Of a DNA stretch of 64,000 nucleotides, positions 11,572 through 18,539 are shown piece by piece. Every line of letters begins with the position of its first letter. The stretch's first letter is position 1. The position numbers and the translations under genes are program-made. A model generated the notes under the pieces. The model was given only the letters and a program-made list of their open reading frames with translations, was not told where the DNA came from and did not search any database. The DNA comes from Thalassobaculaceae bacterium. Lineage in GTDB: Bacteria; Pseudomonadota; Alphaproteobacteria; Thalassobaculales; Thalassobaculaceae. The stretch covers positions 1,098,616 to 1,162,615 of the forward strand of contig OZ245843.1 in assembly GCA_965228875.1 (NCBI GenBank), in the 5' to 3' direction.

Positions 11572-12858
11572 ATGCACGACATTCGCAGCATCCGCGACGA
11601 CGCCGCCGCCTTCGACCGAGGACTCGCCCGCCGCGGGGTGGCGCCGGCGTCCGAGGCCATCCTGGCCCGTGATGCGGAATGGCGATCCGTGACCACCGAA
11701 CTGCAGGCCGCACAGCAGCGCCGCAACGAGGCGTCGAAGCAGATCGGCATCGCCAAGCGCAACGGCGAGGACGCGGGCCCGCTGATGGCCGAGGTGGCGG
11801 AGCTTAAGGATCGCATGGCGGCTCTCGAGGAGGACGAGCGCCGCCTCGCGGCCGTGGTTGAGGAGATGCTCGCCACGTTGCCGAACATTCCGGCCGACGA
11901 CGTGCCCGAAGGCGCCGACGAGAGCGCCAACGCTCTGGTTCGCGAGGTCGGCACGCCGCGTACCCACGACTTCCCCGCCAAGGACCATGTGGAGATCGGC
12001 GAGGCGCTGGGCATGATGGATTTCGAGCTGGGCGCCAAGTTGGCCGGATCGCGATTCGTCGTTCTCAAGCGCGACCTGGCCCGACTGGAGCGGGCGATCG
12101 CCGCCTTCATGCTGGATATCCATACCGGCGAGTTCGGGTACACCGAGATCAATCCGCCGCTGATGGTGCGCGATGCCGCGGTGTTCGGCACCGGGCAGCT
12201 GCCGAAGTTCTCCGAGGACCTGTTCCAGACCACCGAAGGGCACTGGCTGATCCCGACGGCGGAGGTGCCGCTGACAAATCTGGTCGCCGACACGATCGTC
12301 GACGAGGAGGAACTGCCCCTCCGGGTGACCGCCTACACGCCGTGCTTCCGGTCAGAGGCGGGGGCGGCGGGGCGGGACACCCGCGGCATGATCCGCCAGC
12401 ACCAGTTCACCAAGGTCGAACTGGTCTCGATCGTCCACCCCGACCGGTCCGACGAGGAACTGGAGCGGATGACGACATGCGCGGAGACGGTGTTGCAGCG
12501 TCTCGACCTCGCCTACAGGGTGATGAAGCTGTCGACCGGCGACATGGGCTTCACCGCCCGCAAGACCTATGATCTGGAGGTCTGGCTCCCGGGTCAGGAG
12601 GACGGAAAGGGCCAGTATCGCGAGATCTCGTCCTGTTCGAACTGCGGCCCGTTCCAGGCGCGCCGGATGAAGGGGCGCTACCGGCCGAAGGGAGAACGCC
12701 GGACGGAATTCGTGCACACGCTGAACGGCTCCGGCCTCGCCATCGGCCGGACCATGATCGCCATCCTGGAGACCTACCAGGAACAGGACGGCTCGGTGGC
12801 GGTGCCAGACGTGCTGAAACCCTATTTCGGCCGTGACCGGATCGAGCCGGCGGCATGA
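11572..12858 (+). CDS. serS: Serine--tRNA ligase
   Basis: [44 protein letters not shown]. Confidence 0.98.
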
Positions 12859-13637
12859 TCAATCGTCCCGTGGAACTCGACGGCGCGCGCATTCTCGTCA
12901 CCAACGACGATGGCTACTCCGCCGCCGGCATCGCCGTACTCACCCGCATCGCCCGGACCTTCACCGACGATGTCTGGGTGGTGGCTCCTGAAACGAACCA
13001 GAGCGGCGCCGGCCACTCGCTGACGCTGCAGCGGCCGCTGCGGCTGCGCGAGGTGGAGGACCGCCGGTTCGCCGTCGACGGCACGCCCACCGACTGCGTG
13101 CTGCTGGCGATCAACGAGGTGCTGACGGACAAGGCGCCGACGCTCGTGCTTTCGGGCATCAACCAGGGTTACAACCTGGGAGAGGACGTGCGCTATTCCG
13201 GGACGATCTCGGCGGCGATGGAGGGGATGATGCTCGGCACGCCGTCGATCGCCCTCAGCCAGTTCGTCCCGGCCGAAGGCACGCCCCCCTGGGAGACGGC
13301 CGAGACCCATGCGCCGAATCTGATCCGCCGGCTCTGTGCCAACGGCTGGCCGACCGATACCGTGCTCAGCGTCAATTTCCCGGCCTGCGGTCCGGGAGAC
13401 GTCACCGGCGTGCGGGCGACGTCCCAGGGCCGGCTGAAGACCGGGGACCGCATCGTTCGCGGCACCGATCCCCGTGGGCGGCCGTATTTCTGGGTCGGTG
13501 CCATGCTCAAGACCCGCGACGGCGAACCCGACAGCGATGTGGCGGCGGTGCGCGACAATGCCATCTCCGTCACGCCGGTGGCGCTCGACGCGACCGACCG
13601 GGCGGCACTGGCCGCCTTGAAGGGGGGGCTTGGGTGA
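12855..13637 (+). CDS. surE: 5'/3'-nucleotidase SurE
   Basis: [31 protein letters not shown]. Confidence 0.96.
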
Positions 13638-14287
13638 GCCACGACGAGGCCCGCAAGATCCGGCTCATCATGAGTCTGCGCCGAGGGGGAATCACGGATT
13701 CCCGCGTGCTCGGCGCCATGGAACGGATCCCGCGCGAGGCCTTTGTCGATCCCACCTTCCTCGATCAGGCCTGGGAGGACCGGGCCCTGCCGATCGCCCA
13801 GGGCCAAACCATTAGCCAGCCCTTCATCGTTGCGTTCATGACCCAGGCCCTGGAGTTGACCGACCGGACCAAGGCACTCGAGATCGGAACCGGGTCCGGC
13901 TACCAGGCGGCGATCCTGGCCAAGGTCGCCCGACGGGTCTACACGGTCGAGCGGCACAAGGAACTGATGGCGACCGCCGAGGAGCGGTTTGCCCGCCTCG
14001 GCCTGCACAACATTCACACCCGCATCGGCGACGGCTGGAAGGGCTGGCCGGAGCAGGCGCCGTTCGAGGCGATCATCGTCACCGCGGCCGCGCCGAAGGT
14101 GCCGACGGCGCTGCTGGATCAGTTGGGCGATGGCGGGCGGTTGGTGATTCCCATCGGTCGATCCTCCGACGTTCAGAAGCTGGTGCGCTATCGCCGCCGC
14201 GGTGAGGAACTCGTCGAGGAGCCGCTTCTCGACGTACGCTTCGTGCCGCTGGTCCCGGGCCAGGTGTCGGCGGGCGCCGATCGCTGA
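13634..14287 (+). CDS. pcm: Protein-L-isoaspartate O-methyltransferase
   Basis: GQTISQP, LEIGTGSGYQAA, APFEAIIVTAA, RFVPL. Confidence 0.96.
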   Translation: MSHDEARKIRLIMSLRRGGITDSRVLGAMERIPREAFVDPTFLDQAWEDRALPIAQGQTISQPFIVAFMTQALELTDRTKALEIGTGSGYQAAILAKVARRVYTVERHKELMATAEERFARLGLHNIHTRIGDGWKGWPEQAPFEAIIVTAAAPKVPTALLDQLGDGGRLVIPIGRSSDVQKLVRYRRRGEELVEEPLLDVRFVPLVPGQVSAGADR

Positions 14288-14383
14288 CGCGGGCGGCCGA
14301 CGGGGGCTGCGTTTCGATTGTCCCTTTACCTTGCGTGATCGATCGTCGATTGATCGTCCGATCTTTTGCCGAAAGGGGTAGCG

Positions 14384-15163
14384 ATGTTCAAGCTGGTGCC
14401 GGATGCCCTGCCCGAGGCGACGATCGCATGGGCCAAACCCTTCCTTGACGAGTTGGTCGGGCGGTGCGGTGGCAAGTCATCGCTGACGACCAACGATGCT
14501 TCTGCCGAGGCGCGTGCCAAGTTTCTTGAGATCGCCGATGGGTGCCTGTTCGGCCCCGTGCGTGACCTTTTCGTCGAGCGCCACGGTGTGGAGCCGGCCA
14601 TCTGCCTGTCTCTCACCACCCTGCGTCAGCAACTGCCCGGATCCGCCGACCGGCTGGTGAACTGGCACCTGGATCTGAACTTCATCAATGACGACAAGCC
14701 TTTCTTGGTCGCCTGGACGCCGATGGAGGAGGTCGGCGAGACCCGCGTCGCGATCGAGGTCTGCGTGCCGACCGGCAGCGGTTACGATCTCAAACCGCTG
14801 GTCGCCGACTGGTACCGGCGCAAGCTGGACAAACGGACGCTCACCTTTTCCGATTCGGAGCTCGACGAGCTGATCGGCGCGGGAAACTGGGCTGCGCGGG
14901 CCGTGAAGGCCAGACCGGGTATGGCCGCGGTCTTCGACCAATATGTCCTGCACCGCTCGCAACTGCTGGAGGGGGCGACGGACAGCCGGATGTCCATTGA
15001 ATTCCGGTTGGTCGATCTGGACAATCTCCCGATGTCGCTCAAACACCAGAACTCGATCTTTCTCAGGCGCAACCCGGAAGGGGGAACGACGCTGTTCTCC
15101 GCGCGCCGGGGGAAGGCTGAAACATTGAAGAAATCGCAGTTTGGGACCATAAAGTTCAAGTGA
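14384..15163 (+). CDS. Hypothetical Fe(II)/2OG dioxygenase-like protein (PhyH-like), paralogue A
   Basis: WHLD (HxD), PGMAAVFDQYVLHRS (distal His), RMSIEFR (RxS); AGGGG RBS before ATG 14384. Confidence 0.65.
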   Translation: MFKLVPDALPEATIAWAKPFLDELVGRCGGKSSLTTNDASAEARAKFLEIADGCLFGPVRDLFVERHGVEPAICLSLTTLRQQLPGSADRLVNWHLDLNFINDDKPFLVAWTPMEEVGETRVAIEVCVPTGSGYDLKPLVADWYRRKLDKRTLTFSDSELDELIGAGNWAARAVKARPGMAAVFDQYVLHRSQLLEGATDSRMSIEFRLVDLDNLPMSLKHQNSIFLRRNPEGGTTLFSARRGKAETLKKSQFGTIKFK

Positions 15164-15199
15164 AGGTGTATCCCGTTCTCCGCAGCTCCGGCAGGAACC

Positions 15200-16315
15200 G
15201 TGAAACCGGTCGCACTCATCGTCCTTGTCGCCCTGATCGTGGCGGGCTGCGCCATCAGCTCGCCGCCGCGCTCGGTCAATGCGCCGCGTGATGGCTCCGT
15301 CGTGCCGGCGAGCGGCGTCGTCACCGTGCGGCCCGGCGACAACGTCTACCTGATCGCCCAGCGCTACGGCGTTACCTCCCGTGCCGTCATCGAGGCCAAC
15401 GGCCTGCGTCCGCCGTACCTGCTGCGGCCTGGCGACCGGCTGCGCCTGCCGCGCAGTGCGGTCCATGTCGTACGGTCCGGCGACACGGTGTCCGAGATCG
15501 CAGAGCGGTACGGCGTCTCCATGCGCTCGCTGGTGGTGCTCAACGATCTGCGCCCACCCTACCTGATTCGTGTCGGCGACCGCCTGCGTCTGCCGGGCGG
15601 TTCACCTGCGCCGGCCGGTGTGACGGTGGCTGCGCGAACGCCGAAGCCGGTACCGCCGCCGGCGGCACCCGCCTCGCCGCCACCGGCACGTTCCGGCTCG
15701 CAGCCCTGGAGTGGCGGCGGTCAGCTGCACTTTCCGGTCAAGCGGGGGGGCGACCGGGCGACCCGGGCGCCGGTGCCGGTACCGCGGCCCAGCGCGATCG
15801 CCCGCCAACGACCGGTACCGGAGTCCGAGACACGGGTCGCGGGCAGCGGGAAACCGTCGTCCGCATCCGCCCCGGCCCGGACCGTCTCCCTCACGCCACC
15901 GGCGAAGACCGGGCGAGGCTTCTCCTGGCCTGTCGAAGGGCGGGTGATTTCCGGGTTCGGGCCGCGCGCCGGGGGCCTGCACAACGACGGTATCAACATC
16001 CAGGCCCCCGCCGGGGCCGAGGTCCGGGCCGCCGAGAACGGCATCGTCGTCTATGCCGGCAACGAACTGCGCGGATTCGGCAACCTGCTGCTGGTCAAGC
16101 ACGACGGCGGCTACACCACCGCCTACGCCCATGCCGACCGCCTGCTGGTCGACCGGGGCGACAAGGTCCGACGCGGTCAGGTCATCGCCACCGTCGGGCA
16201 GACCGGAAACGTCTCGCGCCCGCAGCTGCATTTCGAGATCCGCAAGGGACCGCGACCGGTGGACCCGCGCAAGGAGCTGCCGCCGGCGCAGGTGTCCTCG
16301 ATCCCCTCAGACTGA
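15200..16315 (+). CDS. nlpD: LysM / M23 peptidase lipoprotein (NlpD/DipM-like)
   Basis: Lipobox VAGC, two LysM repeats, Pro-rich linker, M23 domain (HNDGIN, YAH, PQLHFEIR); usual position after pcm. Confidence 0.9.
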   Translation: MKPVALIVLVALIVAGCAISSPPRSVNAPRDGSVVPASGVVTVRPGDNVYLIAQRYGVTSRAVIEANGLRPPYLLRPGDRLRLPRSAVHVVRSGDTVSEIAERYGVSMRSLVVLNDLRPPYLIRVGDRLRLPGGSPAPAGVTVAARTPKPVPPPAAPASPPPARSGSQPWSGGGQLHFPVKRGGDRATRAPVPVPRPSAIARQRPVPESETRVAGSGKPSSASAPARTVSLTPPAKTGRGFSWPVEGRVISGFGPRAGGLHNDGINIQAPAGAEVRAAENGIVVYAGNELRGFGNLLLVKHDGGYTTAYAHADRLLVDRGDKVRRGQVIATVGQTGNVSRPQLHFEIRKGPRPVDPRKELPPAQVSSIPSD

Positions 16316-16335
16316 CCGGCTCGGGAGAGACGTGC

Positions 16336-17127
16336 ATGCCGATCTTCAAAGTCGTACAGGACGCGCTGTCGCCTGCCGCCGTCGAACTTGCCAACAGGGT
16401 GGTGGTGGACGTGGCGGAGCGGGCCGGCGGCAAGTTCTCCTTCGACAGCAACGACGCCGGCCCGGACGACCGGGATTCCCTGCTCGCCCTGGCCGAGGCA
16501 TTTCTCGACGGTCCGGTCCCGGAGATCTTTCGCTCCCTCCACGGGGTTGAGCCGGGACTCTGCCTGTCGATCACCTCGGTTCGTCGCCAGAAACCGGCCG
16601 ATGCCGGACAGATGGTGGACTGGCACCTGGATCTGAATTTCGTCGGCGACATTCGCCCGTTTCTGGTTGCCTGGACCGCGATCGAGGCGGTCGGGGTCGA
16701 GCGCTCGGCCCTGGACGTCTGCGTTCCCAACGGACAGCCGCTGCACCTTGAAGCCGTGCTCCGCGAGCTTGCGGTGCGGACGGAGAAGGAGGCGCCCATG
16801 GTGTTCACCTCCGGGGAACTGGACGACCTGCTGGGCGAGGATGCGTGGATGAGCAAATCGGTCGTCGCTCCGGCCGGTGCCGCCGCCGTGTTCGACCAGA
16901 TGATCCTTCACCGCTCCCAGGTGCTGCCGACGGCGACCAAGGTCCGCCATTCCATCGAGTTCCGGATGATGGACCTGGACAACCTGCCGGCGCACCAGCG
17001 CACCCAGCCGGCCCTGTATGCCCGCCGCGCCCCGAGCGGGGACCTCGAGCTGTTCGTCATACGCCCCGGCGAACGCCGGCAGCTCTCCCGTGACGACTAC
17101 AGGAACCTGAGGATCCTCAAGCGATGA
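16336..17127 (+). CDS. Hypothetical Fe(II)/2OG dioxygenase-like protein (PhyH-like), paralogue B
   Basis: WHLD, AAAVFDQMILHRS, RHSIEFR; colinear with 14384-15163; GGAG RBS. Confidence 0.65.
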   Translation: MPIFKVVQDALSPAAVELANRVVVDVAERAGGKFSFDSNDAGPDDRDSLLALAEAFLDGPVPEIFRSLHGVEPGLCLSITSVRRQKPADAGQMVDWHLDLNFVGDIRPFLVAWTAIEAVGVERSALDVCVPNGQPLHLEAVLRELAVRTEKEAPMVFTSGELDDLLGEDAWMSKSVVAPAGAAAVFDQMILHRSQVLPTATKVRHSIEFRMMDLDNLPAHQRTQPALYARRAPSGDLELFVIRPGERRQLSRDDYRNLRILKR

Positions 17128-18539
17128 CCCCCGAAGAGTTCCGCCGCCACGCCCACGCCATGGTCGACTGGATGGCCGACTTCCTCGACGGGGTGGAGGC
17201 CTATCCGGTGCGCGCGCAGACGCGGCCAGGCGAGATCGCGGCGAGACTGCCCCTCGTGCCGCCCGAGAGCGGTGAGCCGATGGAGCGGATATTCGAGGAC
17301 TTCCGGCGCGACGTGCTGCCCGGCGTCACCCACTGGCAGCACCCGCGCTTCTTCGCCTATTTCCCGGCGAATTCGAGTCCGCCATCCGTCCTGGCGGAGA
17401 TGCTGACTGCCGCCCTGGGCGCCCAGTGCATGCTCTGGCAGACCAGCCCGGCGGCCACCGAGATGGAGACCCGGGTTCTCGACTGGCTGCGCCAGATGGT
17501 CGGCATGCCGGACGGGTTCACCGGTGTGATTCAGGACAGCGCCTCCAGCGCCATCCTCGCCGCCATCCTGACCGCGCGCGAGAAGGCGACCGGCTGGGGG
17601 GTGAACGCCGAGGGGCTGCGTGCGCACCCGCCGCTGGCGGTCTACACCTCCGAGCAGACCCACTCGGCGACCGAGAAGAACGTGAAGATCGCCGGTCTCG
17701 GCCTCGCCGGGTTCCGCAAGATCCCGGTCGACGAGGCGTTCCGTCTGCGGGTCGACGCGCTGAGGGAGGCGATCGAGGCGGACCTTGCGGCCAGCATTCG
17801 GCCCGCATGCGTAGTGGCGTCCGTCGGCGGCACCGGGGTGGGGGCGGTCGATCCTCTGCGCCAGATCGGCGAGCTCTGTCAGGCCCACGGCATCTTCCTT
17901 CACGTGGACGCCGCCTGGGCCGGCAGCGCGCTGATCTGCCCGGAGCATCGCTGGATGTTCGACGGGATCGAGCTCGCCGACAGCGTGGTGTTCAACCCGC
18001 ACAAGTGGCTGCTCACGAACTTCGACTGCTCGGCCCATTACGTGAAGGACCCGGATGCCCTGATCCGGACCTTCTCGATCCTGCCGGAGTTCCTGAAGAG
18101 CCGCGAGGCGGACGCGGTGATCGACTACCGCGACTGGGGCGTGCCGCTGGGCCGTCGGTTCCGGGCGCTGAAGCTCTGGTTCGTGATCCGGAGCTACGGT
18201 GTGGAGGGGCTGCGCGCCATCATCCGCGAGCACGTCCGGCTCGGCGGCGAATTCGCCAAATGGGTCGAGGCCGATCCGGAATTCGAAATCATGGCACCGC
18301 CGGTCCTGTCGCTCGTCAACTTCCGATACCATCCCAAAGGTGTCGACGACGCGGCCGAACTCGACCGCCTGAACGAGGCGCTGCTGCACCGGATCAACGA
18401 TGACGGCCGGATCTATCTGACCCAGAACCGGGTGGGTGGCCGTTACGCGATACGCATGTCGATCGGCCAGACGACCACCGCGCAGCGCCACGTGGAAGAG
18501 GGCTGGGCGGTGATTCGCGAACTGGCCGCCGCCGGATAG
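17124..18539 (+). CDS. Group II PLP-dependent aromatic amino-acid decarboxylase family protein (possible aldehyde synthase)
   Basis: PGVTHWQHPRFFAYFP, SPAATEME, LHVDAAWAG, FNPHKW (PLP lysine), DYRDWGVPLGRRFRALKLWF. Confidence 0.9.
   Translation: MTPEEFRRHAHAMVDWMADFLDGVEAYPVRAQTRPGEIAARLPLVPPESGEPMERIFEDFRRDVLPGVTHWQHPRFFAYFPANSSPPSVLAEMLTAALGAQCMLWQTSPAATEMETRVLDWLRQMVGMPDGFTGVIQDSASSAILAAILTAREKATGWGVNAEGLRAHPPLAVYTSEQTHSATEKNVKIAGLGLAGFRKIPVDEAFRLRVDALREAIEADLAASIRPACVVASVGGTGVGAVDPLRQIGELCQAHGIFLHVDAAWAGSALICPEHRWMFDGIELADSVVFNPHKWLLTNFDCSAHYVKDPDALIRTFSILPEFLKSREADAVIDYRDWGVPLGRRFRALKLWFVIRSYGVEGLRAIIREHVRLGGEFAKWVEADPEFEIMAPPVLSLVNFRYHPKGVDDAAELDRLNEALLHRINDDGRIYLTQNRVGGRYAIRMSIGQTTTAQRHVEEGWAVIRELAAAG

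Follow-up and report, generated by a model that had tools for sequence, protein, structure and literature searches.

Does a bacterial gene that annotation pipelines would name a decarboxylase encode an enzyme that releases aromatic aldehydes? The question is raised by the gene at positions 17124 to 18539 of a stretch of 64,000 nucleotides (positions 1,098,616 to 1,162,615 of contig OZ245843.1, assembly GCA_965228875.1, a Thalassobaculaceae bacterium), which as a whole is termed the window. The gene codes for a homologue of the aromatic amino acid decarboxylases (AAADs), enzymes using pyridoxal 5′-phosphate (PLP), and carries Phe in place of the catalytic Tyr of the large loop. A preliminary description of the window had proposed it as a candidate aromatic acetaldehyde synthase. 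In this study, sequence features, positional equivalence, conservation and phylogenetic pattern were observed directly, and we consider it probable, by analogy with known enzymes, that the product is an O2-dependent aromatic acetaldehyde synthase of the AAAD family. It would be a bacterial member of an enzyme kind known from plants, insects and, recently, fungi. Of added interest, an entire bacterial clade is dominated by the Phe form, which has repeatedly been exchanged with the Tyr form on an unchanged pocket. The gene and the residues in question are:

17124 to 18539, + strand: gene of the Phe-type AAAD homologue (471 aa; candidate aromatic acetaldehyde synthase), an open reading frame (ORF) whose translation has no internal stop.
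18090 to 18092, + strand: Phe323, codon TTC, at the large-loop catalytic Tyr position by gap-free alignment to Y332 of human AADC (the decarboxylase acting on aromatic L-amino acids), the Tyr of Pseudomonas putida DOPA decarboxylase (PpDDC) and F338 of Arabidopsis phenylacetaldehyde synthase (AtPAAS).
18003 to 18005, + strand: Lys294, codon AAG, the PLP Schiff-base Lys in NPHKW; aligned with human K303 and Lys in 121 of the 121 closest proteins.
17661 to 17669, + strand: small catalytic loop His180-Ser181-Ala182 (the motif SEQTHS holds His180); His in 121 of the 121 closest proteins.
17367 to 17369, + strand: Ala82, codon GCG, equivalent to Ala103 of Catharanthus tryptophan decarboxylase (CrTDC) and Ser101 of the tyrosine decarboxylase PsTyDC by the 6eew alignment, counted against the numbering in 10.1101/404970.
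18147 to 18152, + strand: Leu342-Gly343, equivalent to CrTDC Thr369-Gly370 by the 6eew alignment; both invariant in the 162-row clade set introduced below.

Residues 35-402 of the protein match PF00282 (Pyridoxal_deC; E 1.4e-108, 363.4 bits against a cut-off of 27), while no NCBIfam equivalog is reached over its cut-off, the top one being a diaminobutyrate decarboxylase model with 161 bits against 900. The large loop reads TFSILPEFLKS, so the canonical proton-donor Tyr (human Y332, CrTDC Y348) is replaced by Phe323. The other catalytic residues are kept: Lys294, His180 (codon CAC at 17661-17663), Gly343 (codon GGC at 18150-18152, inside WGVPLGRRFR), Arg344 and Asp262, the residue binding the pyridine nitrogen of PLP, are each conserved in 121/121 closest proteins. 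Translation and codons thereby bear out the earlier statement that Phe323 goes with an intact PLP Lys, active-site His and Gly of WGVPLGRRFR. With His180 kept, the signature of the His-to-Asn class, Asn for the small-loop His, is absent. The naming by pipelines is also as foreseen, close homologues being called 'pyridoxal-dependent decarboxylase' or 'aromatic-L-amino-acid/L-tryptophan decarboxylase'.

For the positional assignment, sequences of the Protein Data Bank were searched by phmmer with the full protein and, in a second search, with residues 280-360 only. The top solved relatives were P. putida DDC (7xin, E 1.5e-137) and AtPAAS (6eei, E 4.6e-131), followed by Catharanthus TDC (6eew) and pig and human DDC; the top ones are all aromatic amino-acid enzymes. 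In the search with residues 280-360, the chains aligned gap-free from the PLP Lys up to the loop. Phe323 corresponds to human AADC Y332, the Tyr of Drosophila DDC, the Tyr of P. putida DDC (N-P-S-Y-L-Q) and AtPAAS F338, and the loop residue lies 29 residues past the Lys in the human, Drosophila, P. putida and Arabidopsis enzymes as well as in the protein studied here. The equivalence with the catalytic Tyr, on which the proposal depended, was thus confirmed. As to another Tyr filling the position, the sequences show in and near the loop no Tyr column specific to the Phe type, and the largest Tyr enrichments in that type, at columns 306 (44% vs 15%) and 192 (23% vs 2%), are not general. By the Phe in the place of the large-loop Tyr, the 471-aa protein fits the Tyr-to-Phe class of aldehyde synthases (AtPAAS, Rr4HPAAS and Pc4HPAAS), a class defined by F346 or V346 in the numbering of Pc4HPAAS (PMC8927377; this and the other papers are cited from excerpts).

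The oxidative chemistry would be that of natural plant enzymes and of Tyr-to-Phe mutants of plant and mammalian enzymes. In the proposed reaction, the substrate amino acid would form an external aldimine on the Lys294-bound PLP and lose CO2 to give a quinonoid carbanion. In the canonical enzymes, the hydroxyl of the large-loop Tyr, with help from the small-loop His, protonates C-alpha, after which the amine leaves; Phe323 in place of the Tyr would impair this protonation. O2 could then react with the carbanion, and a peroxide intermediate would yield arylacetaldehyde, NH3 and H2O2. The product might be oxidised by a general aldehyde dehydrogenase to indole-3-acetic acid (IAA) or phenylacetic acid (PAA), or reduced to the alcohol. 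As precedent, PsTyDC Y350F formed only tyrosol in yeast and the aldehyde in vitro, the exchange being called 'necessary and sufficient'; in the authors' proposal, the Tyr hydroxyl is replaced by O2 (10.1101/404970). The Tyr-to-Phe exchange also converts mammalian DDC and human histidine decarboxylase (HDC), and the reverse exchange reverts plant synthases (PMC11308512).

The closest characterised counterpart is AtPAAS, deposited as 'Tyrosine decarboxylase 1', which is of the same family and length, has an identical P-E-F-L-K with Phe338 at the place of Phe323, and shares the small-loop His followed by Ser-Ala, K-W-x-L-T-N-F-D-C-S after the PLP Lys and Leu-Gly at 342/343. It differs in being a plant enzyme of the basal AAAD clade, in Ser for Ala82 and in Val-Gly-Phe for Gln101-Cys102-Met103, and its activity is demonstrated whereas that of the bacterial protein is predicted. 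The best solved relative, P. putida DDC, which we take to be L-DOPA-specific, aligns over residues 2-467 and is likewise bacterial, of the same architecture and with Leu-Gly at 342/343, but has the catalytic Tyr (N-P-S-Y-L-Q), His-Ser-Ser in the small loop and Ser at the Ala82 position. It has been used as a dopamine-forming DDC (PMC8927377). The insect synthase of 3,4-dihydroxyphenylacetaldehyde (DHPAAS; 6jrl, E 1.1e-90) and Eucalyptus EgPAAS belong to the same family and catalyse the same net reaction as predicted here, but they have Asn for His in the small loop with Tyr kept (10.1101/404970), whereas the protein of the window keeps His180. CcbF of celesticetin biosynthesis is a bacterial PLP enzyme that performs an O2-dependent oxidative decarboxylation-deamination to aldehyde, CO2, NH3 and H2O2; it differs in acting on a cysteine S-conjugate in an antibiotic pathway (PMC7497351), and it was absent among the relatives found. 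Microbial AAAD-family acetaldehyde synthases have been described from the fungi Psilocybe mexicana (IasA) and Psilocybe cubensis (PcDHPAAS); these are eukaryotic and are likened here by description only. IasA is an indole-3-acetaldehyde synthase that prefers Trp and was modelled on 6eei; its authors describe it as the first microbial acetaldehyde synthase with a preference for Trp to be characterised (PMC11046786), so that, going by that excerpt, no bacterial one was known to its authors in 2024. A review of 2020 names synthases from plants and insects and, in the text excerpted, calls literature on a bacterial or fungal PLP oxidase role lacking (PMC7497351). In our searches of the open PMC and bioRxiv literature we found no characterised bacterial AAAD-type acetaldehyde synthase, although an earlier report may have been missed; among the papers listed, the AAAD aldehyde synthases described are from plants, insects and fungi only, in line with the earlier remark that this activity is little characterised in bacteria.

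To count Phe against Tyr at this position among bacterial homologues, as the preliminary description had suggested, four samples were used, the first two of which overlap (some rows are identical), so that their counts are not independent. The first sample comprised the 120 closest proteins (at least 69% identical) of a collection of 5.8 billion proteins plus the protein itself; 84 of these 121 have Phe and 37 Tyr. The second comprised 44 distinct loci of the bacterium's own family, Thalassobaculaceae, in which the gene is a single-copy orthologue in 47/62 other genomes. Here, Phe was found in 31/31 orthologues from eight genera, down to 66% identity and including 9/9 same-genus loci, and Tyr in 11/11 orthologues from four other genera. 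Ten of the Tyr orthologues (three genera) come from DNA of 42-44% G+C, the eleventh, L021, being outside the G+C measurement. Because Phe occurs in all nine same-genus loci and all 31 orthologues of the eight genera, it is neither chance nor a sequencing error. In the two remaining loci, of one further genus (g16), the gene is DDC-like and 47% identical, and its loop likewise carries Phe (N-P-S-F-L-Q).

For the third sample, the best 150 representatives of 50%-identity clusters were taken, of which 78 (430-540 aa) were kept and 72 fragments or fusions dropped; the column read Tyr in 69, Phe in 4, Ile in 2, Leu in 1, Pro in 1 and a gap in 1. The fourth consisted of the best 80 of at least 600 species-level loci on genome contigs (47-68% identity, many phyla), with Tyr in 75 and Phe in 5. 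The five distant Phe loci belong to a Minwuia metagenome-assembled genome (MAG), an alphaproteobacterial MAG, Methylobacterium isbiliense, a Blastocatellia MAG and Calothrix membranacea. We take all five lineages to be aerobic, which is in line with the aldehyde synthase reading. Tyr is therefore the rule family-wide (dominant in 69/78 and 75/80), and Phe is the majority state of the protein's own clade; the Phe form is not peculiar to this genome but the majority form of a large bacterial clade (84/121 closest proteins), and entire genera of marine alphaproteobacteria have no copy but this form. The search of the bacterium's own genome likewise gave one AAAD match, the gene at 17124-18539, so that the Phe type is an orthologous replacement and not a diverged duplicate as in plants.

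Some observations were made beside these counts. Ile or Leu stands in the loop Tyr column of the cluster representatives P0122, P0161 and P0266, P0122 being the best-scoring one; plant enzymes with Val at this position count as aldehyde synthases (PMC8927377). A homologue of a gammaproteobacterial MAG (L088:7001-8365) keeps the loop Tyr and has Asn at the small-loop His, the exchange that marks insect DHPAAS and Eucalyptus PAAS; from its sequence, it might represent another class of aldehyde synthases in bacteria, next to the Phe type. The g16 genes (L043:5980-7410, - strand; L044:5998-7431, + strand) are P. putida-DDC-like; the gene directly upstream in L044, on the same strand, is flavin-monooxygenase-like, and the phenylacetate pathway gene paaA is also found only in these two g16 genomes. 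Two genomes, G041 and G042, lack the decarboxylase homologue; both are single-contig, about 1.5 Mb and rated 99% complete, an odd size gap to the genomes of about 5 Mb in the same genus.

The history of the exchange was analysed on a clade set of 162 rows, in which the loop column holds Phe in 114, Tyr in 48 and nothing else. Since Phe is fixed in the 31 family orthologues and only Phe or Tyr occurs in the 162 rows, an aromatic ring appears to be selected and the gene not to be decaying. That the gene is inactive or decaying is accordingly highly improbable: the canonical proton donor is lost, but the reading frame is unbroken, no PLP-binding residue varies, the single-copy orthologue is present in 47/62 other family genomes, and Phe itself is conserved over eight genera. 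A FastTree tree built from 191 rows requires 23 changes of the Phe/Tyr label, and starred branches force at least 12 of these; with the labels shuffled, the mean was 57.6, and 0/500 shuffles were as low as 23. On an IQ-TREE tree (LG+G4, quick search; 103 rows left after dereplication at 93% inside each state, together with 3 outgroups), 21 changes were counted, at least 8 forced by starred (well-supported) branches. The nearest Tyr/Phe pair is 97.5% identical and the second nearest 89.5%. Over 130 loci (six duplicates), Phe is coded by TTC in 38 and by TTT in 6, and Tyr by TAT in 44 and by TAC in 42; thus, each switch amounts to a single A/T exchange in the middle of the codon. Though clustered, and genus-stable in the bacterium's lineage, the label has flipped many times across the whole clade; the trees do not tell gains of Phe from losses. 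That one family with a fixed pocket has switched at least eight times (TAY to TTY) between decarboxylases that form amines and synthases that form aldehydes is a more tentative proposal, which we hold possible but would not yet bet on.

The pocket itself is alike in both types. Trp71, Tyr79, Phe80, Asn83, Thr237, His293, Thr298, Phe300, Leu342 and Gly343 are invariant over the 162 rows, Ala82 is found in 114/114 Phe-type and 43/48 Tyr-type rows, and Gln101-Cys102-Met103 is nearly invariant, so that both forms should bind the same substrate. Only column 182 tracks the Phe/Tyr label, with Ala in 112/114 Phe-type rows and Ser in 29 and Ala in 18 of the 48 Tyr-type rows; in the best 80 species-level loci it is Ser in 75/75 Tyr-type and Ala in 3/5 Phe-type sequences. 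Over eight independent pairs, the difference ran in the same direction in 2.9 and in the opposite one in 0.0, and was absent in 5.1 (median p 0.25); the covariation of Ala182 with Phe323 is one-sided and not significant, and as such suggestive. To transfer substrate rules from plants, equivalents of CrTDC residues were counted on the 6eew alignment, which reproduces the published numbers of Trp92, Lys319 and Tyr348. In plants, Ser at the Ala82 equivalent binds the p-hydroxyl group of the substrate and Ala goes with unhydroxylated substrates, and Gly at the Gly343 equivalent favours indolic over phenolic substrates (10.1101/404970). Ala82 together with Gly343 is the combination of Catharanthus TDC and, by the plant rules, points to an unhydroxylated substrate. 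The substrate is thus probably Trp or Phe, on a cross-kingdom analogy in which the pocket is not the plant one.

Several points weigh against the assignment as a synthase, and they bear on two other readings. Toggling between Phe and Tyr 21 times (at least 8 well supported) on an identical pocket, with the 97.5% identical pair among the cases, could mean that the switch is of little consequence in this scaffold. The Arabidopsis aromatic acetaldehyde synthase (AAS), which is of the Phe type, is reported to form serotonin in vitro by decarboxylation of 5-hydroxytryptophan (PMC13619621), so that with Phe in the loop some substrates may still yield an amine, and PsTyDC H205N is bifunctional (10.1101/404970), so mixed outcomes do occur in the family. 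The functional case is one of analogy, no assayed bacterial Phe-type enzyme having come to light in the open literature searched. In the loci compared, no aldehyde dehydrogenase, reductase or peroxide-handling gene is among the conserved neighbours. The protein might therefore be mainly a decarboxylase or a mixed enzyme, in which water, His180 or Lys294 protonates the carbanion, an arylethylamine (tryptamine, phenethylamine) is formed and the Tyr/Phe exchange is nearly neutral. We regard this as unlikely: in the PsTyDC, mammalian DDC and human HDC mutants and the plant AAS revertants cited above, it is the Tyr hydroxyl that decides between amine and aldehyde, and a label that is stable over eight Phe and four Tyr genera and far more clustered than any shuffled one forms a pattern unlike free neutral drift.

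The other reading concerns the substrate. Positions 101-103 are Gln-Cys-Met, against Val-Gly-Phe in plant enzymes and Leu-Gly-Leu in P. putida DDC; with Gln101 and Met103 unlike the residues of either, the substrate may not be a classical one. The same oxidative chemistry might then act on a modified or non-aromatic amino acid, or another PLP side reaction (e.g. decarboxylation-dependent transamination) might take place. The NCBIfam equivalog scores (161 bits against 900) and a PhyH-like oxygenase gene translationally coupled upstream in this strain would fit such a reading, and acetaldehyde synthases for hydrophobic amino acids exist in the form of legume serine-decarboxylase-like enzymes (PMC4177580). 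It is nevertheless quite unlikely, as the aromatic pocket residues Trp71, Tyr79, Phe80, Pro81, His293 and Phe300 are kept as in characterised AAADs, the top solved relatives are without exception aromatic amino-acid enzymes, and the PhyH-like gene is absent from 6/9 same-genus loci. The candidate assignment as an aromatic acetaldehyde synthase, finally, was supported by every sequence-level test available, with the activity itself predicted.

Genes for the further metabolism of an aldehyde were searched for in the genome and its relatives. Six aldehyde dehydrogenases were found in the genome (E up to 1e-40), two of them unassigned, and none reaches a phenylacetaldehyde dehydrogenase cut-off (best 437 bits against 800); paaA is present in it but in only 2/9 genus genomes carrying the Phe-type gene; both results count among the points against a synthase. 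Catabolism of Phe via phenylacetate was rejected as a conserved role on the paaA distribution. A route from L-DOPA to homoprotocatechuate was rejected too, no homoprotocatechuate dioxygenase (HpaD, either type) being found over cut-off in the genome; hmgA is present. Copper amine oxidase was found in 0/10 genus genomes and not in this one, so one usual route from arylethylamine to aldehyde is missing in the genus, a point in favour of a synthase; overall it occurs in 6/63 genomes with a distribution that does not follow the Phe/Tyr split. In the loci and the genome examined, no conserved partner gene or dedicated aldehyde dehydrogenase supports a physiological role.

If the assignment as a synthase is correct, 'decarboxylase' names and metabolic reconstructions built on them would give the wrong product for whole lineages. 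Production of dopamine and trace amines has been inferred from bacterial AADC homologues that were, according to the excerpt, checked only for Lys303 and His192 (PMC10570526); genome-based claims of 'trace amines' would be wrong for Phe-type lineages. Bacteria would possess an unrecognised O2-dependent route that turns Trp or Phe in one step into indole-3-acetaldehyde or phenylacetaldehyde, which could lead on to the auxins IAA or PAA, with a bearing on bacteria-alga and bacteria-plant signalling. Near-identical natural Tyr/Phe pairs, alike in the pocket, would offer a ready system for studying O2 gating in PLP enzymes, and the same pairs could supply bacterial enzymes with which to produce tyrosol, 2-phenylethanol or alkaloid precursors.

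The decarboxylase homologue is the last gene of a co-directional string consisting of serS, surE, pcm, a PhyH-like gene, a LysM/M23 peptidase gene, a second PhyH-like gene and the homologue itself, and 3′ of it lie the convergent genes of an unassigned 262-aa ORF, lrgB, lrgA and DUF815. The genes directly upstream are:

14366 to 15163, + strand: PhyH-like paralogue, 43% identical to that at 16336-17127, between pcm and the M23 peptidase gene.
15200 to 16315, + strand: LysM/M23 peptidase (NlpD-like) gene by Pfam, kept upstream of the homologue across the genus and in two sister genera.
16336 to 17127, + strand: PhyH-like Fe(II)/2-oxoglutarate oxygenase gene, 263 aa, with a weak PhyH match (E 0.0025) and HxD...H...RxS.

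The stop of the PhyH-like gene at 16336-17127 overlaps the start of the decarboxylase homologue (ATGA). In the alignment of PhyH-like proteins, HxD, the distal His and RxS are invariant, which is the pattern of Fe(II)/2-oxoglutarate oxygenases, and Atlas look-alikes of the protein are PhyH in 29/30 cases. The gene is present in 3/9 same-genus loci and 55% identical where the decarboxylase homologue is about 91% identical. With this distribution, the lower identity and 15 further matches in the genome, its role as a conserved operon partner was rejected; it is an accessory insertion. The family of these proteins (about 265 aa) has 16 matches in the one genome, two copies bracketing the nlpD-like gene, and only 9 relatives in a word-index search of 5.8 billion proteins; it is lineage-restricted and expanded. 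The own-genome search located the match of the paralogue at 14366-15163, the nearest of the further matches, at C1:1112999-1113769, i.e. 14384-15154 of the window.

The M23 peptidase gene lies upstream in 11/11 loci of three genera (L001-L011) and in 0/19 others (L012-L030), while the queuosine genes queA, tgt and queG are the neighbours in four other genera. In eight sister loci, the decarboxylase homologue begins within a few bases of the peptidase gene end, which suggests co-transcription with stationary-phase genes. In the window, surE, pcm and the nlpD-like gene precede the homologue (12855-18539, + strand); in E. coli, this trio is followed by rpoS. A scan for promoters and terminators gave no promoter-like site and 6 terminator-like ones where 3.1 were expected, which is not decisive. 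Five independent Phe-type loci had no neighbour function in common, and the neighbourhood says nothing firm on a pathway. In a single case, L071:4849-8434 of Methylobacterium isbiliense, Mn-catalase and SIR2-like genes precede the Phe-type homologue on the same strand; the Mn-catalase gene, two genes upstream, is of note because the predicted reaction would release H2O2.

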